64,000 nt of DNA. Origin: Ruthenibacterium sp. Lineage in GTDB: Bacteria > Bacillota > Clostridia > Oscillospirales > Ruminococcaceae. This document shows positions 32,399-42,094 of the stretch, piece after piece. The stretch is from contig JAVXUG010000001.1 of NCBI GenBank assembly GCA_036642215.1, positions 11,896-75,895 on the forward strand, read 5' to 3'. A program made the position numbers and the translations under genes. The stretch's first letter is position 1, and every line of letters starts with the position of its first letter. The notes beneath the pieces are model-generated. The model made no database searches. It saw nothing but the letters and a program-made list of their open reading frames with translations, and was not told the origin of the DNA.

Positions 32399-32431
32399 TT
32401 GCAAAACATCCACCAAAGTGGTATACTTTGG
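32399..32431 (+). promoter_or_regulatory. SigA-type promoter of the nitrogenase-like operon with overlapping 7-5-7 inverted repeat
   Basis: TTGCAA(32399-32404)-17-TATACT(32422-32427) with extended TG; CCAAAGT-ggtat-ACTTTGG (32413-32431). Confidence 0.7.
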
Positions 32432-32460
32432 GAAATAATTCTGACATTGAAAATTCGTTT

Positions 32461-32556
32461 TGAGATGGAAGATACAGATCTACGGCTTTTTAGGATTCCT
32501 CTGTAGAGGTATTCTTGTCCCGTTATCGCTGCATCTTTCGGATGCAGCGATTTTTT
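32461..32556 (+). promoter_or_regulatory. Structured 5' leader with internal intrinsic terminator (putative attenuator/riboswitch)
   Basis: Imperfect stem aagatac..tctac / gtaga..gtattctt, then the perfect hairpin ATCGCTGCATC-tttcg-GATGCAGCGAT followed by a T run, about 75 nt before the first start codon. Confidence 0.65.
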
Positions 32557-32629
32557 ATTGCCGTTACACTTGCCCGCTCACGCGGGTGCACAGCTTAAAA
32601 AGCACACGGTGGAAAGATGAGGAAATAGC

Positions 32630-32887
32630 ATGGAATCACGCGTAGCGGTCATCGGTATTATCGTGGAGGAGGAATCGGCGGCAGAGCCGCTGAACGCCAT
32701 CCTGCACGAATACGGCAAATTCATTGTCGGGCGCATGGGCATTCCCTATCGCGCCAAGGGCATCCATATTATTAGCATCGCCGTGGACGCGCCGCAGGAT
32801 GTCATCAGCGCGCTCTCGGGCAAAATCGGCAGGTTGACGGGTGTGAGCGCCAAAACGGCGTACTCGAACGTCATCACACCGTCATGA
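32630..32887 (+). CDS. TM1266-family 'iron-only hydrogenase system regulator' (ACT/NikR-C-like)
   Basis: RVAVIGIIVE...LNAILHEYGKFIVGRMGIPY...IISIAVDAPQDVISALSGKIGRLTGVSAKT. Confidence 0.88.
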   Translation: MESRVAVIGIIVEEESAAEPLNAILHEYGKFIVGRMGIPYRAKGIHIISIAVDAPQDVISALSGKIGRLTGVSAKTAYSNVITPS

Positions 32888-33906
32888 GGCGCGCGCGCGC
32901 GGTCGGTGCGCTTTCGCCGGCGTGGAAAATTGCGCTGCTTCTGCTGCCGATTCTCGCGGCGATAGCGGCGCTGGGCATCGGACGCATTGTCATTGCGCCG
33001 GCGGATGTTTTGCGCTCACTTTCGGCAAAGCTGACAGGCGGAGCCGGCCTTTCACAGCAGATGGAAACCGTCCTATGGACCATTCGCCTGCCTCGTATTC
33101 TTTTGGCTCTTTTAGTCGGGGCAGGACTTTCTGTGGCAGGCTGTGCGTTTCAAAGTTTGTTTGCAAATCCGCTTGCAACACCCGATACGCTTGGCGTTGC
33201 AAGCGGTGCCAGCTTTGGTGCCGCGCTTGGGCTGTTGCTTGGACTTGGGCTTGTCGGTGTGCAGGCACTTGCACTTGCACTTGGCGCGGCGGCTGTGGCG
33301 CTGACCTGGCTTGCGGGCAGTGGGCGCGGCAGCGGCATGAGCGGAACGGTGCTGTCCGGCATTATGATTGGCTCTTTGTTTACGGCGCTTGTCTCCCTTG
33401 TCAAGTTTGTTGCGGACACAGAGTCGCAGCTGCCCGCCATCAGCTACTGGCTGATGGGCAGCCTTTCCTCGGCGGGTTATTCGTCTCTTGCCCTCGGTGC
33501 GCCGCCCATTCTGCTTGGCATTGCCGTGCTGTTTTTATTGCGCTGGCGGCTGAATTTACTGCCGCTGTCCGAGGATGAGGCACGCGCAAGCGGGACAAAT
33601 ATTCGTTTGCTGCGCGGTGTCACCGTGGTATGCGCTACTGCTATTACGGCATCATGCGTGTCAATGTGCGGACAGGTCGGTTGGATCGGGCTGCTCATTC
33701 CGCATATGTGCCGCATGAAATTTGGCAACAACCATCTTTCTGTCTTGCCCGCATCCATCAGCCTTGGCGCAACATTTCTTGTTGTTGTGGATACGCTCGC
33801 ACGCAGTGCAACCGCGTCTGAAATTCCTGTTTCCATCCTTACTGCTATCATTGGCGCACCGTTTTTTATTGTGTTGATGCGCCGTTCAGAGGGGTGGCAG
33901 CTATGA
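32884..33906 (+). CDS. FecCD/BtuC-family ABC permease
   Basis: IRLPRILLALLVGAGLSVAG, NPLATPDTLGVASGA, WLMGSL, DEARASG and GWIGLLIPH. Confidence 0.93.
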   Translation: MRRARAVGALSPAWKIALLLLPILAAIAALGIGRIVIAPADVLRSLSAKLTGGAGLSQQMETVLWTIRLPRILLALLVGAGLSVAGCAFQSLFANPLATPDTLGVASGASFGAALGLLLGLGLVGVQALALALGAAAVALTWLAGSGRGSGMSGTVLSGIMIGSLFTALVSLVKFVADTESQLPAISYWLMGSLSSAGYSSLALGAPPILLGIAVLFLLRWRLNLLPLSEDEARASGTNIRLLRGVTVVCATAITASCVSMCGQVGWIGLLIPHMCRMKFGNNHLSVLPASISLGATFLVVVDTLARSATASEIPVSILTAIIGAPFFIVLMRRSEGWQL

Positions 33907-35078
33907 CGCTGGCAGTAGAGCACGCTAGCTTTGGCTATGCAAAATGCGGAGAAGTTTTGCGGGATGTCACCTTTACCGCAAACGCAGGCGATCTTGTAGC
34001 GGTTCTTGGCCCGAACGGTTCCGGAAAAACAACGTTGCTGCGCTGTATGATGGGATTTTTGCGCTGGACAGACGGATGCAGCACCTTGGACGGCGCAAAC
34101 ATCCGCACACTGCCGCCCCGCAAATTGTGGCAGGCGATGGCCTATGTGCCCCAAGCGCGCAATGTCACGGCGGCCTACACGGCCGAGGAGATGGTTTTGC
34201 TCGGGCGCAGCAGCCGTTTAAGTGCACTGTCACAGCCCGCCGCGCAGGACTTTGACGCGGCGCATGCCGTGATGGAAACGCTGCACATTCTGCCGCTGCG
34301 ACGCAAGAAATGCAGTGAAATCAGCGGTGGAGAATTGCAGATGGTGCTGATTGCACGCGCACTTGCCGCGCAGCCGCGCGTGCTGATTTTGGACGAGCCG
34401 GAATCGAATCTTGACTTTAAAAACCAGCTTCTTATTTTAGAAACACTCTCGCACCTTGTGTCGGACGGCATGACATGCATTTTTAACACGCACTACCCTG
34501 CCCACGCGCTGCAACGCGCCAATCAATCTCTGCTGCTGTCAAGGGACGGTCACGCGCTGTTTGGCGACACCTCCGCAATTGTGACAGAGCAAAATATCGA
34601 GCAGGTTTTCGGCGTAAAGGCCGCCATCGGCGAAGTAGAGACGCGTGGCAGCATTCTGCAAAGCGTTGTGCCCATTTCTGTTTCGCAGCCGGACGCTCCA
34701 CGCTTTGCGGGCGCTCTTGCGACAAATTTTCTTCATGCAGACAAAAAAAGCGCAGACAATGCAGCACCTTGCATCCCCTCGCGCTGCGTGCTTGCCGTTG
34801 TCGCAATCATCGCGACAGATTCCGCTGTCGCTGAAAAAATCAACAAATATCTGCACGCGTACAAAGAGTTCCTCATCGGGCGCATGGGGATGCCCTATCG
34901 CGATGGCGGGGTTTTCATCATCAACGTCACGCTGGACGCACCCGAAGTTTGCGTGCGCACCTTGGTGCAGCGGCTGTCAAATTTGCCGGGGGTGAGTGTA
35001 AAAGCGACGTTTGCACCGGAATTTTCGGCCGCCGCCGGCCCGAGCGTTCCCATTGGGACAAAGGAGGATTCTCTGTGA
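33903..35078 (+). CDS. FecE/BtuD-type ABC ATPase with C-terminal TM1266-like domain
   Basis: GPNGSGKTT, ISGGELQ, LILDEPE and H-loop; C-terminal INKYLHAYKEFLIGRMGMPY...IINVTLDAP...LSNLPGVSVK aligns with the 32630 protein. Confidence 0.9.
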   Translation: MTLAVEHASFGYAKCGEVLRDVTFTANAGDLVAVLGPNGSGKTTLLRCMMGFLRWTDGCSTLDGANIRTLPPRKLWQAMAYVPQARNVTAAYTAEEMVLLGRSSRLSALSQPAAQDFDAAHAVMETLHILPLRRKKCSEISGGELQMVLIARALAAQPRVLILDEPESNLDFKNQLLILETLSHLVSDGMTCIFNTHYPAHALQRANQSLLLSRDGHALFGDTSAIVTEQNIEQVFGVKAAIGEVETRGSILQSVVPISVSQPDAPRFAGALATNFLHADKKSADNAAPCIPSRCVLAVVAIIATDSAVAEKINKYLHAYKEFLIGRMGMPYRDGGVFIINVTLDAPEVCVRTLVQRLSNLPGVSVKATFAPEFSAAAGPSVPIGTKEDSL

Positions 35079-36136
35079 CAAACCGTGAAATCATCGATGC
35101 GCTGCATGTGCGGCAAGCGCTGTCCTTTGACGCATGGGTACAGCTGATTCGCACCCGCACCGAGGACGATTGTGCCTATGCCGCACAGCTTGCGCGCACA
35201 CTTGCGCAGCAGCGCTTTGGAAAGCAAATCTATTTTCGCGGCGTGATAGAATTTACAAATTACTGCAAAAATGACTGCTATTACTGCGGCATCCGTCACG
35301 GAAACACCTGCGCCGCACGTTACCGTTTGACGCAGGACGACATTCTTGCCTGCTGTGAGGACGGCTATGCGCACGGCTTTCGCACCTTTGTTTTGCAGGG
35401 CGGCGAGGATCCCTATTTCACCGATGAGCGCCTTGTTGCAATGGTATCGGCAATTCGCGCGCGGTTTGCCGACTGTGCCATCACCTTGTCTGTGGGTGAG
35501 CGCAGCCGCGCGTCGTATCAGCGTCTGTTTGACGCGGGCGCAAACCGCTATCTTTTGCGGCACGAAACGGCGGACGCGGCGCATTATGCCCAGTTGCACC
35601 CCGCGGATATGCTGTGGGCGCACCGCATGCAGTGCCTGCGTGATTTAAAGGGCATCGGCTATCAAACGGGCTGCGGCTTTATGGTGGGCACACCCCATCA
35701 GACGGCGGAGCATCTGGCGGCGGATATGGTATTCATCGGCGCGTTTCGCCCGCAGATGATTGGCGCCGGGCCGTTTATCCCGCATAGGGACACACCCTTT
35801 TGTGACGCGCCTGCCGGAAGCGTGGCGCTTTCGCTGTTTTTGCTGAGCCTTTGCCGCATTGCACAGCCGGAGGTTCTTTTGCCCGCCACCACAGCGCTGG
35901 GAACTGTGTGCGGTGACGGACGGCAGCTTGGCGTACTGGCGGGCTGCAACGTTGTCATGCCAAATTTATCGCCGCTCTCCGTGCGCAAAAAATATATGCT
36001 TTACAACGATAAGATTGGCACAGACGACAGCGCCGCGGACGGTGTGCGCGCGCTGACACAGCAGATGGAGGCCATCGGCTACACTGTGCACGTTGGCCGC
36101 GGTGACTATAAAAAGGAGGACATGCCCCATGATTAA
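35075..36136 (+). CDS. hydE: HydE-family radical SAM enzyme
   Basis: GTG start after AAGGAGG; [17 protein letters not shown] (CX3CX2C), [40 protein letters not shown] and YMLYNDK. Confidence 0.88.
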
Positions 36137-36893
36137 GCTTGCAATGTACGGCAAAGGCGGCATCGGGAAATCGACAACCGTATCGAATTTGTCCGTTGCC
36201 CTTGCCGAAAAAGGTTACCGCGTGATGCAAATTGGCTGCGACCCGAAAGCGGATTCCACCATCAGCCTACACGGCGGAGTGGCAATTTCGACGGTACTTG
36301 AGCTTGTGCGCACCCGCAACAATGATTTTACGCTGGACGAAATGGTCACGGTCGGCGACGGCGGGGTTATTTGTGTGGAGGCAGGCGGCCCCACGCCGGG
36401 GCTTGGCTGCGCGGGGCGCGGCATTATTGCGGCCTTTGAAAAGCTGGCAGAAAAGGGCGCGTATGAAGCTTTTCAGCCCGACATCATCCTGTATGACGTT
36501 TTGGGCGACGTTGTCTGCGGCGGCTTTACCATGCCCATGCGCAGCGGCTATGCCGACAAGGTTTTTATTTTGACCTCCGGCGAAAATATGTCTTTGCACG
36601 CGGCGGGAAGCATCGCCATGGCTGTCGAAAATTTTCGCGGGCGCGGCTATGCGCAGCTGGGCGGACTGATTTTAAATCGGCGCAGCGTCAAGGACGAGGA
36701 CGCAAAGGTTGCGGAGCTTGCCGCCGATTTGCACACGGTCATTGTGGGCAGTCTGAACCGCAGCGACGCAGTGCAAGCCGCCGAGGAGCTTGGCAAAACA
36801 GTGCTTGCCGCCTTTCCTGACAGCACGATGGCGGCGGAATACCGCGCTCTGGCCGACAATGTGCTGGCTTCTTGCGGGGTGACAACATGCTGA
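36129..36893 (+). CDS. Nitrogenase iron-protein-like reductase (NifH/NflH-like)
   Basis: [37 protein letters not shown] and [11 protein letters not shown]; both [4Fe-4S] Cys ligands are present. Confidence 0.95.
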
Positions 36894-38218
36894 CGCGCTG
36901 CAATTCCACCTCCGTCACCGAACGCGATGCCTGTGTTTTAGTTGGGGACGCATCCTTTCCGTCACCATTCCCCTCCGGCCTTGAATATGCCGCGCCCGCA
37001 CGCGGAACATGGAATATTGTCCACACGGGCATGCTCATCCCCGAAATCCACGAAATTTTCGTCTGCGCGGCAGGCTGTCTGCGCGGCGTAGTGCTGACGG
37101 CTGCGGAAATGAACGCATCGCATCGCTTTTCCACCATCGCCGTGCGCGAAAACAATGTGCTTGAGGGCGACATGGAATCGCTGATGATTGACGGCGTAGC
37201 GGATATTCTGCAAAAGCTGCCGGCACGTCCGCCCGCCGTGCTGCTGTACACAAGCTGCATTCATCACTTTATCGGGTGCGACCTTAACTTTGTGTACCAA
37301 ACGCTGCGCGAAAAATTCCCCGATGTGGCCTTTGCCGATTGCTATATGAATCCCATTCTGCGCAAGAGCGGTCTTACCCCCGATCAATTGATGCGCCGAC
37401 AGCTTTACAGTCTGCTTTTGCCGCGCGAAATAAACCCGAAAAGCGTGAACATCATCGGCAACAATCTGCCCACAGACGAGACGAGCGAGCTTGTGCAGAT
37501 GCTGCGCACAGGCGGCTTTACGCTGCGCGATATCACGCGGTGCAGCACTTATGCAGACTATCAAAAAATGGCCGAAAGCGCCCTCAACATCACGTATCAT
37601 CCGGCGGCAGCGCCCGCCGGCGACGCATTATCACAGCGGTTATCGCAGCGTCATCTGTCTTTGCCGCTGTGCTATGGTTATGACGAAATAGCGCGAAATC
37701 TCAGCACGCTTGCCGTAGCGCTCGGCATGGAAGCGCCCGATCCGGCGCCGCGCATTGCCGCGTGCGAGGCGGCGCTTTCGGCGGCGCTGAGCGTCATCGG
37801 GAACGCGCCGATTGCCCTTGATTACACCGCCACCATGCGTCCGCTTGGGCTGGCGCGGCTGCTGCTTTCGCACGGCTTTCATGTGCAGCGCATTTATCTT
37901 GACAGCATCACGCCGGAGGAAAAAGAAGATTTTGACTGGCTGCGCACAAACGCGCCGTCGCTGCTTTTCTATGCCACGGTGCAGGTAAAGCTGCGCGTAC
38001 TGCCGCGCCGCACAGCAGAAAAAACGCTTGCCATCGGACAAAAAGCCGCCTATTTTACAGGCACGGATTATTTTGTCAATATAGTTGAGGGCGGCGGCAT
38101 GTACGGCTTTGACGGCATTTGCCGCATAGCGCAACAGATGCAAAGCGCATTTCTGCACGCAAAAAATGCAAAAAATTTAATTCAACTGAAAGGGCTTGGC
38201 TGCGGGTGCTGCGTATGA
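36887..38218 (+). CDS. Nitrogenase component 1-like alpha subunit (NifD/NflD-like)
   Basis: [30 protein letters not shown] and SVNIIGN fit the oxidored_nitro fold; no Cys or His where the FeMo-co ligands are expected. Confidence 0.85.
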
Positions 38219-39465
38219 AACAAACAGCAAGCATTATTTCGACCTATGCAGCCGATGTATCGGGCGTGGCATCCGCTCTGTTTGAACTGGGCGGCATGAC
38301 CGTGATGCACGACGCGTCAGGCTGCAATTCCACCTACAATACACATGATGAGCCGCGCTGGTACGATACGGACAGCCTTGTATTTCTCTCCGGGCTGTCG
38401 GAGATGGAGGCCGTGATGGGGGACGACGGCAAGCTCATCGACGACATTGCCGCTGCCGTGCGGGAGCTGCACCCTGCCTTTTTAGCGGTGGCGGGCACGC
38501 CCATCCCGATGATGGTCGGCACCGACTTAAAGGCTGTGGCCGCTGTGCTGGAGGCGCGCACGGGCATCCCCTCTTTCGGCTTTGCCACAAACGGCATGCA
38601 CTCGTATTTGTCCGGCGCTTCGATGGCGTTTGCCGCATTGGCAAAGCACATGGTTGCTCCCGTTGCTGCCGACGCGCCAAGGCATGAAATGCTGTGTGTG
38701 AATCTTCTCGGCGCAACTCCGCTTGATTTTTCGATCAACGGCAGCGTCGCGGCAATCGCAGACGCTGTGCGGTGCGGCGGCGCACAGGTGATCAGCACAT
38801 GGGCAATGGGCAGCACGCTGGCTGAGCTAAAGCGTTCGGGCAGCGCCGATGTAAATCTTGTGGTGTCCTATTGCGGCCTTGCGGCGGCGCGTATCTTGCA
38901 GCAGCGCTTTGGCACGCCGTATGTCGTCGGTGTGCCGATTGGCTCTGCCCTTACACAAATTATTTTGTCCGCGCTCGCAGCCTCTGCCGCAGATAAAAAA
39001 TGCCGCATTGCCTATCAAGCGGCAGATAAGCAGGACAAAAAAGCCTGTGAATGCGACGCATCCTCGTTAAAACGTTCGGCGCACCCCGCATTGCCTGTTG
39101 TCACGCTGATTGGCGAAAGCGTTTATTCCTGCTCCTTGGCGGCGGCGCTTTGGGCAGAGCGCGGCATTCCGGCGCGGGTTTTGTGCCCACTGGAAACAGA
39201 GCCTTCGCTGCTTCGCGCGCAGGATTTCGTTGCGCCCGACGAGGATGATTTGTCGCCCTTGCTGTGCGCCACCGCGCAGACCCCCGCAAGCGTCATTGTG
39301 GCAGACCCGCTCTACCGCCCGTTGTGCGCCGCAGACGCAGCGTTTGTTCCGCTGCCGCATGAGGCGTTTTCGGGCCGCATTTATCGCAAGAACATCCCGA
39401 ACCTTATTGCCGATTTCCCGATATTTTTAAAATCTTTAGAAAAAGAGGTACGCACCCATGACTAA
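38215..39465 (+). CDS. Nitrogenase component 1-like beta subunit (NifK/NflK-like)
   Basis: HDASGCNSTY, LSEMEAVMGDD, GTPIPMMVGTD, VNLLGATP and ADVNLVVS; ATGA-coupled to the D-like gene. Confidence 0.85.
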   Translation: MKQTASIISTYAADVSGVASALFELGGMTVMHDASGCNSTYNTHDEPRWYDTDSLVFLSGLSEMEAVMGDDGKLIDDIAAAVRELHPAFLAVAGTPIPMMVGTDLKAVAAVLEARTGIPSFGFATNGMHSYLSGASMAFAALAKHMVAPVAADAPRHEMLCVNLLGATPLDFSINGSVAAIADAVRCGGAQVISTWAMGSTLAELKRSGSADVNLVVSYCGLAAARILQQRFGTPYVVGVPIGSALTQIILSALAASAADKKCRIAYQAADKQDKKACECDASSLKRSAHPALPVVTLIGESVYSCSLAAALWAERGIPARVLCPLETEPSLLRAQDFVAPDEDDLSPLLCATAQTPASVIVADPLYRPLCAADAAFVPLPHEAFSGRIYRKNIPNLIADFPIFLKSLEKEVRTHD

Positions 39466-40624
39466 CACAAAGCGCATTCTCTCTCTTGCACTGAGCGCAG
39501 TGCTGATGCTGTCGCTCGTCGCCTGCGGCGCGCCTGCGGCTTCTTCCGTCCAAAGCTCCGCATCTGCTGTTAGCGCGCCCGCAAGCGCAAGCGACACGCT
39601 TACCATCACCGATCATTTGGGCAACAGCGTCACGGTTCCGCGTACGATCAAGCGCATCGCCGTATGTGATTTGTTTCCCCTACCCTCGGTTTTGTCTGTA
39701 TTTTTTGACTCTGCCGAAAAAATTGTCGGCATGGCACCGCCCAGCATGAGCGCCGCGAAAAGCAGCCTTTTAAGCGAGCTGTACCCCGAAATTTTGAACG
39801 CAGAAACCGGCTTTATTGATGGCACAAACGTGAACACCGAGGAGCTTTTAAAGCTTGCGCCGGACGTTGTGTTTTACAGTGCCGCCAGCAAGGAGCTGGG
39901 CGAAAAGCTGACGGCGGCCGGGTTTAACGCCGTGGCTATTTCTGTCAGCAAATGGGATTATGATGCCATTGAAACGCTGAACCAATGGATTTTGCTTTTG
40001 AGCGAAATATTCCCGGAAAACGCCAAGGCGGATATTGTGGCTGCCTACAGTGCAAAAACGTATGACCGCGTGCAGGAGCGCATCAAAACCTTGACCGATG
40101 ACGAGCGCGCCCGCGCATTTTTCCTGTTTCAGTACAGCGATGCGTCCATCTCTACGTCCGGCAAACACTTTTTTGGTCAGTGGTGGGCAGATGCCATCGG
40201 CGCAAAGAATGTCGGCGAGGAGCTTGACAAGGATAATTCAGCAGCCGTAAATATGGAACAGCTTTATGCGTGGAATCCCGACCTTATTTTCATCACAAAT
40301 TTTAACATTTCACAGCCGAAGGATTTATACGAAAACGGCGTTGGAAATTATGACTGGAGCGGCATTGCCGCTGTGCAGAACAAGCGCGTTTATAAAATGC
40401 CGCTTGGCATGTATCGCAGCTACACCTGCGGCGTGGACACCCCTGTGACCTTATTGTGGTTGGCAAAAACAGCTTATCCCGACCTGTTCAGCGATGTAAA
40501 TATCACGCAGGAAGCAAAAGACTATTACAAAGCCGTGTTTGGCATTGCGCTGACCGATGCACAGGCCGAGATGATCTTTACCCCGTCCTCCGCCGCGGGC
40601 ACAGGCTTTGCAGCGGGCAAATAA
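39458..40624 (+). CDS. Cluster A-II (siderophore/cobalamin/heme-type) ABC substrate-binding lipoprotein
   Basis: Lipobox LSLVAC and Ser/Ala linker; TITDHLGNSVTVP, NTEELLKLAPDVV, NMEQLYAWNPD and AVQNKRVY. Confidence 0.9.
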   Translation: MTNTKRILSLALSAVLMLSLVACGAPAASSVQSSASAVSAPASASDTLTITDHLGNSVTVPRTIKRIAVCDLFPLPSVLSVFFDSAEKIVGMAPPSMSAAKSSLLSELYPEILNAETGFIDGTNVNTEELLKLAPDVVFYSAASKELGEKLTAAGFNAVAISVSKWDYDAIETLNQWILLLSEIFPENAKADIVAAYSAKTYDRVQERIKTLTDDERARAFFLFQYSDASISTSGKHFFGQWWADAIGAKNVGEELDKDNSAAVNMEQLYAWNPDLIFITNFNISQPKDLYENGVGNYDWSGIAAVQNKRVYKMPLGMYRSYTCGVDTPVTLLWLAKTAYPDLFSDVNITQEAKDYYKAVFGIALTDAQAEMIFTPSSAAGTGFAAGK

Positions 40625-40656
40625 TGCACCGCGCTACAAGAAAGGAGCTGTTTGTT

Positions 40657-41865
40657 ATGGGTCTGAATGATACTCCCTCCGGTGACCGCGTGCACATTGG
40701 TTTTTTTGGGCGGCGCAACGCGGGCAAGTCCAGCCTTGTGAATGCGGTGACGGGGCAGTCGCTCGCCATTGTGTCCGAGACAAAGGGCACGACCACCGAC
40801 CCTGTTTACAAGGCTATGGAGCTGCTGCCCATGGGTCCCGTGATGATCATTGACACACCGGGCTTTGATGACGAGGGCGCGCTGGGGGCGCTGCGCGTGC
40901 AAAAGGCGAAGCAGGTACTGAACAAAACAGACGTTGCGGTGCTTGTTGTCGATGCAGCCGAGGGCATACAGCCCGGTGATGAGGAGCTTCTTGCTTTATT
41001 TCGCGCAAAAGAAATTCCCTATCTAATCGCCTTCAACAAAAGCGATCTTGTGCAAAATCCGCTGGCACTGCCTCAAAACGCAATGTTTGTCAGCGCAGAA
41101 ACCGGTGAAGCCATCCCTGCATTGAAAGAGCGCATTGCCCGTCTTGTGAGCACCGATGACTTAGCGCTGCGGCTGGTCGGCGATTTGATCAAGCCCCTTG
41201 ACCTTGTTGTGCTTGTTGTTCCCCTGGATGCTGCCGCACCCAAGGGGCGGCTGATTTTGCCGCAGCAGCAGGCGATTCGTGACATTTTGGAAGTCGGCGC
41301 AGCCGCCGTTGTCGTAAAGGAGAATGCGCTGCGCGAGACGCTGACACACCTTCGGAAAAAGCCTGCGCTTGTCATTACGGACAGTCAGGTGTTCGCCGGG
41401 GTTTCGGCGGACACCCCGGATGATATCCCCTTGACATCGTTCTCAATTTTAATGGCGCGCTACAAGGGGCTGCTTGACACCGCCGTGCAGGGCATTTCCG
41501 CCGTAGAACGGCTGTGCGACGGTGACACCGTGCTGATTGCCGAGGGCTGTACCCATCACCGGCAGTGCGATGATATCGGCAGCGTAAAAATTCCGCGCTG
41601 GCTGCAGCATTACACGCATAAAAAGCTGCACATCAAAACCGTGAGCGGAACCGAATTTCCGAGTGACCTCTCCCCTTACGCGCTGATTATTCATTGCGGC
41701 GGCTGTATGCTGAACGAGCGCGAGGTGCGCTACCGGATGAAATGCGCGCAGGATCAGAATATTCCCATCACCAATTACGGCATTGCAATCGCCTATATGC
41801 AGGGCATTTTAAAGCGAAGCCTGAGCATTTTTCCGCAGCTTGTGGCGAAGCTTATTTCAGAGTAA
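40657..41865 (+). CDS. hydF: HydF-family GTPase / Fe-S scaffold
   Basis: GRRNAGKSS, GTTTDPV, DTPG, NKSD, RLILPQQQ and LVITDSQ; cluster ligands EGCTHH and IHCGGCM. Confidence 0.95.
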   Translation: MGLNDTPSGDRVHIGFFGRRNAGKSSLVNAVTGQSLAIVSETKGTTTDPVYKAMELLPMGPVMIIDTPGFDDEGALGALRVQKAKQVLNKTDVAVLVVDAAEGIQPGDEELLALFRAKEIPYLIAFNKSDLVQNPLALPQNAMFVSAETGEAIPALKERIARLVSTDDLALRLVGDLIKPLDLVVLVVPLDAAAPKGRLILPQQQAIRDILEVGAAAVVVKENALRETLTHLRKKPALVITDSQVFAGVSADTPDDIPLTSFSILMARYKGLLDTAVQGISAVERLCDGDTVLIAEGCTHHRQCDDIGSVKIPRWLQHYTHKKLHIKTVSGTEFPSDLSPYALIIHCGGCMLNEREVRYRMKCAQDQNIPITNYGIAIAYMQGILKRSLSIFPQLVAKLISE

Positions 41866-41888: not shown

Positions 41889-42041
41889 ACCGCAAAAAGG
41901 TGGCATAGCGGATCCTCTTATAGCAGTTTTCGATGCATGGATGCTTTTTACAGTTTGCAAAACTGCTATAGCTCCCCTTCGCGGGGCGATTTTATGTGCC
42001 GGACACAGACACTGCGCAAGAGCAATGTGAAACCACATTGC
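41889..42041 (+). repeat. Dispersed palindromic intergenic repeat, copy A
   Basis: Aligns by eye end-to-end with 60465-60615; contains the hairpin tatagcagtttt...aaactgctata, then cgcggggcgattttatgtgccgg and GCAATGTG-N4-CACATTGC. Confidence 0.75.
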
Positions 42042-42094
42042 TCTATTTTGTTAAATTGCTGTAAAAAAATCGAGTAAATTGCAAAATAAGCCAA

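Follow-up and report, generated by a model that had tools for sequence, protein, structure and literature searches.

The window, the whole 64-kb stretch of DNA that was analyzed, harbors a predicted operon of nine plus-strand genes at positions 32630–41865. In order, they encode a TM1266-family small protein (32630..32887), a FecCD/BtuC-type permease of a type II ABC importer (32884..33906), an ABC ATPase fused to a TM1266-like domain (33894..35078, starting at GTG 33894 or ATG 33903), the radical SAM H-cluster maturase HydE (35075..36136), a NifH-like ATP-dependent Fe protein (NflH, 36129..36893), a very divergent NifE-like nitrogenase component-1 protein (NflD, 36887..38218), its partner component-1 subunit (NflK, 38215..39465), a class III substrate-binding lipoprotein (39458..40624) and the H-cluster scaffold GTPase HydF (40657..41865). 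Re-reading of the coordinates and profile scores matching each family bore out the genes, order and identities assigned by an earlier sequence-only reading. Its tight junctions were also read directly from the sequence: seven of the eight overlap, comprising ATGA overlaps at 32884, 33903 and 38215, a GTGA overlap at 35075 that joins the hydE start to the ATPase stop (with the ribosome-binding site AAAGGAGG), overlaps of 8 nt at both 36129 and 39458, and one of 7 nt at 36887; the eighth is a 32-nt gap with a ribosome-binding site ahead of hydF at 40657. The genes thus probably form the single operon predicted earlier, a conserved and uncharacterized gene set. Profile and homology searches of the window found no nifB, nifEN, hydA or hydG, as that reading had stated, and no hyp genes either; among the genes of the operon, no recognizable cyanide- or CO-forming enzyme was present. 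Housekeeping genes flank the operon (DnaB/DnaC-like and MatE on the upstream side, PFK and DnaE on the downstream side), and two terminator-like hairpins (plus strand, 41971–41987 and 42019–42044), detected by terminator scan and sequence reading, follow hydF.

A promoter-like site on the plus strand (TTGCAA, 17 nt, TG-TATACT; 32399..32427), assigned purely by consensus match, lies just 5' of a conserved leader RNA. The leader folds into a hairpin of the form CUGAC-NNN-GAAA ... UUGAG-NNN-GAAG with two tandem G.A internal loops (32441..32473, plus strand), followed by an intrinsic terminator with a 12-bp stem and a T run that acts as a putative attenuator (32525..32557, plus strand). The 3' strand of the hairpin, GGAAGAU, is also able to pair with the terminator's 5' arm and would then form an antiterminator. 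The hairpin pattern matched once in the window, against zero matches expected by chance, and once each in 28 of 80 related loci (the best 80 of at least 565), always on the operon strand and beside TM1266; it mostly sits upstream of TM1266, and in three loci (L027, L069 and L075) between TM1266 and the next gene. RNAalifold revealed compensatory pairs, with AU/GC and UA/CG swaps at positions that the search pattern leaves free; over 44 sequences, 95.5% of cells are paired, compared to 25–49% in slid controls. The stem pairs of the terminator also covary, and its 5' arm sequence GCUGCAUCUUUC is kept across species. No match to the leader was found in Rfam 15. The same leader and terminator precede canonical operons: two loci (L171 and L157) read motif-TM1266-HydE-HydG-HydF, with HydG scores of 938 and 916 bits, respectively. 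The common leader on canonical and Nfl-type operons indicates a shared regulon.

The TM1266 protein (TIGR03959, 116 bits; PF21699, 113 bits) is a putative ACT/NikR-C-like regulator of [FeFe]-hydrogenase maturation operons; it is matched by PDB 2NZC with an E-value of 1e-11, and its GRMGIPY motif is invariant in 61 sequences. A second TM1266-like domain (61 bits; residues 300–371, about nt 34791–35006) forms the C-terminus of the importer ATPase (ABC_tran, 100 bits), and this fusion, with a GRMGMPY motif kept, occurs in 48 of 54 ATPase orthologues. The permease (PF01032/FecCD, 265 bits) reaches the cut-off of no curated substrate-specific model. The binding lipoprotein belongs to Peripla_BP_2 (PF01497, 70 bits); its best PDB relatives are 4ovk (154 bits), MolA/HI_1472 (73 bits) and CeuE (51 bits). 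The lipobox Cys23 is conserved, as are many Tyr, Trp and Arg residues, and, in the orthologue alignment, neither His nor Cys is conserved in the mature protein. Its nearest solved relatives with a known ligand, which we take to bind molybdate/tungstate or Ni-(His)2, do not point to an iron-carbonyl species.

Both maturases score well above their equivalog cut-offs: HydE with 531 bits to TIGR03956 (cut-off 255) and HydF, which also has the HydF dimer and tetramer domains, with 561 bits to TIGR03918 (cut-off 326). Genome-wide, this HydE is the sole HydE match and this HydF the sole match above cut-off. The genome encodes four Fe_hyd_lg_C ([FeFe]-hydrogenase-type) proteins, two of which keep the full H-cluster Cys motif set. 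HydG was not found in the genome (94% complete, 109 contigs), where the sole match to the HydG model, at 57 bits, is HydE itself. The HydE shares 57–62% identity with HydE of HydG-type operons and 53–69% with that of Nfl-type operons, and this equal closeness suggests the same kind of substrate. The main proposal of the sequence-only reading, that HydE and HydF had been repurposed for a separate reductase, is not supported, on three counts: they are sole copies in a genome that carries four [FeFe]-hydrogenase-type genes, they have canonical equivalog scores, and HydE is equally similar to its counterparts in HydG-type operons.

NflH (PF00142/Fer4_NifH, 279 bits) scores 293 bits with the curated CfbC model and 291 bits with NifH, both under the models' own cut-offs. 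Its P-loop and the cluster cysteines C93 and C129 (numbered on a query beginning at residue 2 of the 36129 ORF) show no variation across 79 sequences. NflD (PF00148/Oxidored_nitro, 75 bits) has NifE as its best curated model, with only 20.7 bits against a cut-off of 505. Search of the PDB sequences with the NflD family profile found NifE alone, with an E-value of about 1e-6; C124 aligns with a NifE cluster Cys, and in the profile alignment no conserved NflD Cys occupies the position of the NifE cofactor ligand. The AlphaFold2 model of NflD (pLDDT 84) gave NifEN as the top Foldseek hit, with a TM-score of about 0.6 at 12–18% identity. The conserved residues of NflD comprise C60, C64, C124, H126, H127, C131 and C152, together with a C-terminal tail GLGCxCC. 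In NflK (PF00148/Oxidored_nitro, 99 bits), C37, H32 and H44 are the only invariant residues in 76 sequences, C37 being the sole invariant Cys, within MHDASGCNSTY; the protein is roughly equidistant from NifD, NifE, BchB and MarK (31–38 bits). The two subunits lack the P-cluster Cys set, and their Cys pattern is NifEN-like, in that three Cys of NflD and one of NflK could ligate an interface cluster. By curated models, profile and fold comparisons, NflD and NflK fall outside every characterized nitrogenase-like clade, in agreement with the sequence-only reading, which had regarded them as uncharacterized; the organosulfur substrate it proposed found no support here, nor did a tetrapyrrole.

Close relatives of NflD are encoded on at least 565 stretches in a collection of genome contigs in which each species is represented by a single genome. 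Among the best 80 of these loci, the order TM1266-permease-ATPase-hydE-nflHDK-binding protein-hydF is repeated in many Oscillospiraceae, Lachnospiraceae and other Clostridia; the linkage of hydE, nflHDK and hydF that the earlier reading had singled out for a survey is thus conserved over many species, and that of the importer as well. HydG was found in none of these 80 loci. In acetogenic Clostridium (C. ljungdahlii, C. carboxidivorans, C. ragsdalei and relatives), the NflHDK core, at about 61% identity, clusters with HypF, HypC, HypD and HypE and a second Nfl trio, and hydE and hydF are located elsewhere. HypFCDE is known to assemble Fe(CN)2CO, and the clustering suggests chemistry of the same kind, in which iron acquires diatomic ligands. 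Within the best 80 of the at least 565 loci, 65 have the importer, nine have Hyp and the second trio (plus one partial), and none has both. Published acetogen gene tags likewise place hydE and hydF away from the Hyp-type operon (PMC9431212). An aspA-like lyase follows hydF in five Nfl-type loci, as it also does in canonical hyd operons (PMC11736057).

The distribution of NflD was analyzed in one fixed set of 399 Clostridia genomes. Close homologues (41–100% identity; the split from distant ones was set after the data were seen, at a natural gap of 41% versus 32% identity) occur in 12 genomes of eight families. All 12 carriers possess HydF and none possesses HydG, compared to HydG in 247 of 399 genomes (62%) over the whole sample. 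Close NflD is thus present in 12 of 17 HydF+ HydG- genomes, against 0 of 239 HydF+ HydG+ and 0 of 143 HydF- genomes (Fisher p = 5e-17, uncorrected for relatedness). Even within one genus (g74), four genomes have NflD and no HydG, and three have HydG and no NflD. HydF lies away from nflHDK in three genomes (G344, G365 and G256). Five HydF+ HydG- genomes lack close NflD, two of them 65–73% complete and three at least 92%, so that other solutions or exceptions exist. Genome mining of five acetogenic Clostridium species (C. ljungdahlii, C. carboxidivorans and C. ragsdalei among them) recovered HydE and HydF and did not find HydG; tentative motif-based HydG candidates were listed for C. drakei and C. 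autoethanogenum (PMC9431212). As C. drakei carries a Hyp-type operon, the mutual exclusion of NflD and HydG may not be absolute.

We consider it fairly likely that the operon represents a variant, lacking HydG, of the [FeFe]-hydrogenase maturation (hyd) operon, in which the Nfl block plays the role of HydG. nflHDK and the binding-protein gene sit exactly in the hydG slot between hydE and hydF, and in the genomes surveyed they turn up only in the absence of HydG; the evidence favors what the sequence-only reading had offered in brackets, that the product feeds H-cluster maturation. We propose that NflH would spend ATP to drive low-potential electrons into NflDK, which would carry an interface [4Fe-4S] cluster held by three Cys from NflD and one from NflK. 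NflD might offer a second Cys/His-rich site, including the flexible C-terminal CxCC tail, where an iron unit would be converted to the CO/CN-bearing precursor otherwise supplied by HydG, or a working equivalent. HydE and HydF would process this precursor as usual and hand the [2Fe] subcluster to the hydrogenases. With the importer-type operon, all or part of the iron unit would enter as a small metal complex, and the TM1266 domain of the ATPase would sense a pathway intermediate and gate uptake; in the free-living acetogens, HypFCDE and the second Nfl trio would instead make the corresponding species intracellularly. The chemistry of this scheme (the CO/CN source, the imported species and the reduced species) is entirely what we infer. 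The locus would represent a widespread, uncharacterized version of the operon, in which a nitrogenase-like enzyme and an importer of metal complexes take the usual place of the maturase HydG. As the earlier reading supposed, our literature search found no paper on its biochemical characterization, and a 2026 review of nitrogenase-like systems has no hydrogenase-linked group (PMC13474568).

It is unlikely, though the best of the alternatives, that NflHDK and the importer work as an independent ATP-driven system that reduces a metal chelate, tetrapyrrole or organosulfur compound taken up from outside, shares its operon and regulator with hydE/hydF, perhaps as a general iron/sulfur supplier, and does not take over the role of HydG. 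The characterized non-nitrogenase members, DPOR, COR, CfbCD, Mar and isethionate reductase, all reduce small organic substrates (PMC13474568), the importer is of the siderophore/heme/corrinoid class, and no enzyme that forms CO or CN is encoded in the operon. However, confinement of close NflD to HydF+ HydG- genomes would be unexpected for an unrelated reductase, the Nfl block occupies the hydG slot behind a canonical hyd leader RNA, the acetogen core clusters with HypFCDE rather than an importer, and NflD and NflK score far under every curated model and match MarD/K and BchB weakly. Less probable still is a reverse dependence, in which NflDK is the client of HydE and HydF, which equip it with a [2Fe]-type organometallic cofactor and so make it a novel enzyme whose cofactor is H-cluster-like or hybrid. 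The invariant Cys and His of NflD, with its Cys-rich tail, exceed the needs of one [4Fe-4S] cluster, its nearest relatives among solved structures are the NifEN proteins, which hold a cofactor, and hydE and hydF flank the nfl genes. HydE, however, requires a CO/CN-iron substrate, so this alternative leaves the absence of HydG unexplained, and it gives no explanation of the anticorrelation; moreover, HydE and HydF are sole copies in hydrogenase-encoding genomes, and in acetogens with Hyp-type operons they are encoded elsewhere. That HydG is missing merely through incomplete assembly (94%, 109 contigs), with the gene order a local accident, is very improbable, given its absence from all 12 close-NflD genomes (most 93–100% complete) against 62% of the sample, a gene order found in dozens of species, complete genomes included, and published genome mining that likewise lacks HydG in acetogen carriers (PMC9431212).

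Compared with known systems, the HydG-replacing operon that we favor shares an ATP-dependent Fe protein and a component-1 pair with DPOR/COR, CfbCD, Mar and isethionate reductase and, like them, is not a nitrogenase, whereas all curated models score the Nfl proteins far below cut-off; matches of MarD, MarK and BchB to NflK are weak (21–35 bits). A P-cluster is reported for Mar (PMC12552129), and NflK lacks a Cys set for it. NifEN/NifH is the closest solved relative by profile and fold, with separate D and K subunits and a NifH-like ATPase partner, and the NflDK Cys pattern fits an interface [4Fe-4S] cluster rather than a P-cluster; they differ in the low identity and in context, which is hydrogenase maturation, with no nifB in the window, compared to nitrogen fixation. 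The ATPases of MetNI and ModBC have a C-terminal ligand-binding domain that serves trans-inhibition. Here, too, a small ACT-like domain is fused at the ATPase C-terminus; however, it belongs to the TM1266 family, the importer is of type II (FecCD), and the domain would have a regulatory role. In acetogenic Clostridium, the HypFCDE genes cluster with the orthologous NflHDK core; in the present window none occurs, and the ABC importer holds their place in the operon. With the canonical TM1266-hydE-hydG-hydF operon, the locus has in common the equivalogs TM1266, HydE and HydF, the leader hairpin and terminator, the aspA-like lyase 3' of hydF in some relatives, and a genome that encodes [FeFe]-hydrogenases. 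By contrast, HydG is absent from the genome and its place is held by nflH-nflD-nflK and the binding protein, and the permease and ATPase::TM1266 genes are inserted after TM1266.

The nine genes of the operon lie on the forward strand of the window and encode, in order, TM1266 (32630-32887), a FecCD permease (32884-33906), an ABC ATPase with a C-terminal TM1266-like domain (33894/33903-35078), HydE (35075-36136), the NifH-like protein NflH (36129-36893), the nitrogenase component-1 proteins NflD (36887-38218) and NflK (38215-39465), a class III binding lipoprotein (39458-40624) and HydF (40657-41865). This order is present as a sequence-only reading had described it, and direct reading of the junctions found the tight packing that it had claimed, with seven stop/start overlaps and one 32-nt gap that contains a ribosome-binding site. 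The operon is flanked by housekeeping genes, preceded by a promoter-like site and a terminator-containing leader, and followed by terminator-like hairpins; together with the tight junctions, this layout makes co-transcription of the nine genes very likely. The hairpins 3' of hydF lie within positions 41889-42044, a region first listed as a palindromic intergenic repeat family. Profile search found neither nifB nor nifEN within the 64-kb window.

In the gut, in the rumen and in the acetogens used for industrial gas fermentation, hydrogen turnover is driven by [FeFe]-hydrogenases, whose active site is considered to require exactly three maturases, HydE, HydF and HydG. The [FeFe]-hydrogenase large-subunit domain is found in four proteins of the host genome (assembly of 2.24 Mb, 94% complete), and in two of them the H-cluster cysteine motifs are complete. 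One of the four genes (locus L003, G000:C1:87039-87692) sits on the same contig, ~11 kb past the end of the window; its product and that of a further hydrogenase-domain gene, L004, have incomplete H-cluster motifs and are possibly sensory or degenerate. HydE (531 bits) and HydF (561 bits) of the operon score above the curated cut-offs, and are the only HydE and HydF to do so genome-wide. Because they are the sole copies, alongside four hydrogenase-domain proteins, they are the housekeeping maturases of the cell and not spares recruited elsewhere, which argues against the earlier proposal that they were repurposed for a separate reductase. No HydG scores above the cut-off in this 94%-complete genome, where the HydG model picks up nothing but HydE itself (57 bits); HydG is also absent from the window and from all 80 of the best related loci. 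The divergence of HydE from that of HydG-type operons is no greater than from its own orthologues, suggesting from sequence comparison that its substrate is similar in Nfl-type and HydG-type operons.

The distribution of NflD was surveyed in one fixed sample of a single class, 399 scored Clostridia genomes, which were searched for NflD, HydG and HydF. Close NflD homologues (41-100% identity, E <= 1e-114, with the boundary to distant matches set after viewing the data, at a clear identity gap) occur in 12 genomes of eight families, and five further genomes have distant matches only (27-32% identity). HydG was found in 247 and HydF in 256 of the 399 genomes. All 12 genomes with close NflD possess HydF, and none of them possesses HydG. 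Conversely, NflD is present in 12 of the 17 genomes with HydF and without HydG, in 0 of 239 with both, and in 0 of 143 without HydF (Fisher p = 5e-17, a significance that is overstated, as relatives are not independent). Within genus g74, four genomes have NflD and lack HydG, and three have HydG and lack NflD. Five HydF-positive genomes lack both HydG and NflD, two of them being only 65-73% complete and the other three unexplained.

At least 565 stretches of the genome_contigs collection, which holds one genome per species, encode close relatives of NflD, and synteny was analyzed in the best 80 of these loci by tblastn of the nine window proteins. Among these 80, the order TM1266-permease-ATPase-hydE-nflH-nflD-nflK-binding protein-hydF is shared by many Oscillospiraceae, Lachnospiraceae and other Clostridia, chiefly gut and rumen MAGs, so the linkage to hydE and hydF pointed out by the sequence-only reading is conserved well beyond this genome. 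The cultured Intestinibacter bartlettii has a shorter form whose locus contains neither hydE nor hydF. The arrangement is different in acetogenic Clostridium (C. ljungdahlii, C. carboxidivorans P7, C. ragsdalei, C. drakei, C. luticellarii and C. muellerianum), in which a distant second Nfl trio and HypF-HypC-HypD-HypE are followed by the orthologous NflHDK core (NflD ~61% identity; Pfam on locus L033). Across the best 80 loci, the core is accompanied by the importer in 65 and by Hyp plus the second trio in nine plus one partial; none has both, and three of the five with neither are contigs ending early. ORF clustering of the 80 loci revealed no further conserved neighbours beyond the nine genes and the Hyp/second-trio module, apart from an aspA-like lyase or a response regulator in some loci. 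Judging by the record titles of loci L015-L094, an anecdotal and uncontrolled comparison, gut and rumen MAGs and isolates account for most of the importer type, and the Hyp-plus-second-trio type is found in free-living acetogenic Clostridium and Caproicibacter.

The 260-nt spacer 5' of the TM1266 gene is kept among species whose proteins are only 55-75% identical. It contains the leader (32441-32557), in which a symmetric hairpin with two tandem G.A internal loops (CUGAC-NNN-GAAA ... UUGAG-NNN-GAAG) is followed by a variable region and then by an intrinsic terminator. In sequence, the conserved 5' arm of the terminator (GCAUCUUYC) complements the hairpin's 3' strand (GRAAGAU), which predicts an antiterminator/terminator arrangement. 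A search pattern fixing only the conserved unpaired bases matched the window once, with 0 matches expected, and matched 28 of the 80 loci once each, always on the operon strand and beside TM1266, mostly upstream. In three loci (L027 5939-5969, L069 5186-5214 and L075 7009-7037) the hairpin lies 3' of TM1266 and before the next gene, and TM1266 is there transcribed outside attenuator control. Over 44 sequences, 95.5% of cells are paired at the positions that the pattern does not fix, compared to 25-49% in slid controls, and AU/GC and UA/CG exchanges occur there. Rfam 15 contains no family for the leader (whole window at gathering thresholds, leader at E<=5); its only match, ncr1241, was rejected as weak and terminator-driven, and as no known riboswitch in Rfam 15 matches, riboswitch identity offers no clue to the ligand.

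The same pattern returned 80 loci from metagenome contigs, 16 of them with TM1266 directly 3' of the motif; the scan is loose, and many of the ~64 loci without TM1266 beside the match, some on short contigs, are probably chance. Two of the 16 were checked with NCBIfam, and both read motif-TM1266-HydE-HydG-HydF (HydG 938 and 916 bits). As the leader precedes both canonical and Nfl-type operons, the two have a regulator gene and a regulatory RNA in common, and TM1266 is an obvious candidate for the factor that binds the leader.

NflHDK belongs to the nitrogenase superfamily, and comprises a NifH-type ATPase and two Oxidored_nitro subunits. NflH matches PF00142 (279 bits), with the P-loop GKGGIGKST and the cluster cysteines C93 and C129 invariant in 79 sequences, and scores below cut-off on both the NifH (291 bits) and CfbC (293 bits; cut-off 402) models. 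NflD and NflK score 75 and 99 bits on PF00148 (cut-off 28.6 bits). NflD is extremely divergent: the best curated model for it, NifE (TIGR01283), gives only 20.7 bits (cut-off 505), and NflK reaches 67 bits on this model. A 22-member NflD profile matched only NifE among all PDB sequences (E ~1e-6). The AlphaFold model of NflD (pLDDT 84, pTM 0.85) resembles NifEN first, followed by Fe-nitrogenase, Mar and DPOR (TM ~0.6, 12-18% identity). NflK is roughly equidistant from NifD, NifE, BchB and MarK (31-38 bits).

Alignment of 75-79 orthologues revealed H46, H55, C60, C64, C124, H126, H127, C131 and C152 as invariant or nearly so in NflD, in addition to C219 (kept in 88%) and a C-terminal GLGCxCC tail; in NflK, C37 in MHDASGCNSTY is the only invariant cysteine. 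In the profile alignment, Cys124 of NflD aligns with the cysteine in the VFVYNTC motif of NifE, which is a cluster ligand in the NifEN structure, and no conserved cysteine of NflD occupies the NifE/NifD cofactor-Cys position; in true nitrogenases the cofactor ligands are Cys275 and His442 or their equivalents. The pattern is compatible with a 3+1 Cys interface [4Fe-4S] cluster of NifEN/DPOR type, with these residues as putative ligands, rather than with a P-cluster, and also fits a further Cys/His-rich site on NflD whose candidate ligands lie beyond the interface cluster. At E <= 0.001, NflD is matched by only 884 of 1.84 billion cluster representatives, pointing to a distinct, deep branch of the superfamily; in sequences the family is nevertheless populous, as at the same threshold more than 4000 of the clusters formed at 90% identity match NflD, the best 120 being 60-71% identical to it. 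Five family representatives of 786-1010 aa (P0139, P0153, P0184, P0201 and P0216) have the D-like part at one end and are probably D-K or larger fusions.

By curated-model scores and PDB comparisons, NflD and NflK match no characterized nitrogenase-like clade. A true nitrogenase (NifHDK, VnfHDGK or AnfHDGK) would have six P-cluster cysteines, three each in D and K, compared to C37 alone in NflK; the nifD, nifK and alternative-alpha models give 18-46 bits on NflK against cut-offs of 427-654, and none matches NflD. A NifEN maturase as defined by the curated NifE and NifN models is rejected by scores far under the cut-off of 505. For DPOR/COR, the scores are 184 for BchL (cut-off 345), 166 for BchX (331), 57 for BchB (490) and 24 for BchZ (529). 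CfbCD is rejected by the sub-threshold CfbC score, by 30 bits of the CfbD model on NflK (cut-off 268), and by the presence of two distinct subunits compared to its homomeric D. As for methylthio-alkane reductase (Mar, group IV-C), NflK scores 21 bits against MarD and 31 bits against MarK of the PDB and lacks the P-cluster cysteine set, and the NflD profile has no MarD match at E<=0.01. The 'group VI' paralogue of Elusimicrobia differs in genomic context.

The importer parts match PF01032 (265 bits), PF00005 (100 bits) and PF01497 (70 bits), and the permease, ATPase and binding protein are predicted to form a type II importer of the FecCD/BtuCD class. Models of BtuC, FecCD, FhuB, heme and F420-0 transporters all score far under their cut-offs. 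The closest PDB relatives of the binding protein are 4ovk, then MolA/HI_1472 and CeuE, and the ligands of these relatives are diverse and small; MolA binds molybdate/tungstate, and CeuE Ni-(His)2. Conservation in the binding protein falls on Tyr, Trp and Arg, with no conserved His or Cys in the mature part. The TM1266-like domain of the ATPase (34791-35006) is present in 48 of 54 orthologues with an invariant GRMG[IM]PY motif; the six ATPases without it (L065, L067, L078, L089, L090 and L092) are 264-273 aa long. In MetN and ModC, C-terminal domains shut the importer as cytoplasmic ligand builds up. By analogy, the TM1266 domain would close this importer when its cytoplasmic ligand accumulates. 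Canonical hyd operons also come with TM1266, there as a free-standing protein, so what the domain senses is probably an H-cluster pathway compound, and its presence on the ATPase would tie the importer to that pathway in function, not by position alone.

On balance, the operon is probably a HydG-independent form of the H-cluster maturation system. In the proposed mechanism, NflH would drive electrons into a NifEN-like NflDK scaffold, on which an iron unit would be turned into a CO/CN-bearing precursor or an equivalent, which HydE and HydF would then process. The mutual exclusion of the importer and HypFCDE plus the second trio suggests that importer-type organisms take up what Hyp-type organisms make, which is the most speculative step. 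The full 'make or take' version, to which we give only a small chance, holds that NflHDK is a new nitrogenase-family metallocluster maturase replacing the radical SAM enzyme HydG, that gut bacteria such as this one use an iron complex, possibly CO/CN-bearing, taken up from the community through the TM1266-gated ABC transporter, and that free-living acetogens make the same species internally with HypFCDE and a second Nfl trio. If so, a precursor of the hydrogenase cofactor would be salvaged or cross-fed.

An unrelated reductase, merely co-regulated with hydE and hydF, is unlikely in view of the anticorrelation with HydG, the replacement in the hydG slot and the Hyp linkage. That HydE and HydF make a cofactor for NflDK seems quite improbable, as it would leave the missing HydG unexplained. 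The comparative data reject an assembly artefact, which is hardly credible.

HydG-independent maturation, if true, would explain a published puzzle: genome mining of acetogenic Clostridium did not find HydG in C. ljungdahlii, C. carboxidivorans, C. ragsdalei, C. coskatii and strain AWRP, and that study speculated on free CO/CN, with nitrogenase-like genes unmentioned (PMC9431212). A 2026 Chemical Reviews article on nitrogen-fixation-like proteins does not mention HydE, HydF or HydG, and describes several group IV clades and group VI as uncharacterized, with gene context of little help (PMC13474568). Full-text literature search for an association of nitrogenase-like proteins with HydE, HydF, HydG or the H-cluster, for TM1266 and for a hyd-gene riboswitch found no paper describing this system, which combines a hyd maturation operon with a nitrogenase-like enzyme. 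At least 565 genome_contigs stretches, from one genome per species and including C. ljungdahlii, C. carboxidivorans and Intestinibacter bartlettii, would then carry a nitrogenase-like module instead of HydG, and the nitrogenase superfamily would gain a new function, making the cofactor of another metalloenzyme. Such a system would also be relevant to the still unsettled question of how metal-bound CO arises anaerobically, and would provide parts for producing active hydrogenase in other hosts. The carriers include cultured organisms, and the acetogens among them are genetically tractable.

An aspA-like Lyase_1 gene (aspartate ammonia-lyase-like) lies directly 3' of hydF in five Nfl-type loci (e.g. 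L043 9236-10576), matching the aspA-hydF association published for canonical hyd operons (PMC11736057). The HydE and HydF equivalogs, the TM1266 gene and the leader attenuator of the canonical operon TM1266-hydE-hydG-hydF are all present here, whereas HydG is not: where the canonical operon has hydG between hydE and hydF, this one has nflHDK and the binding protein.
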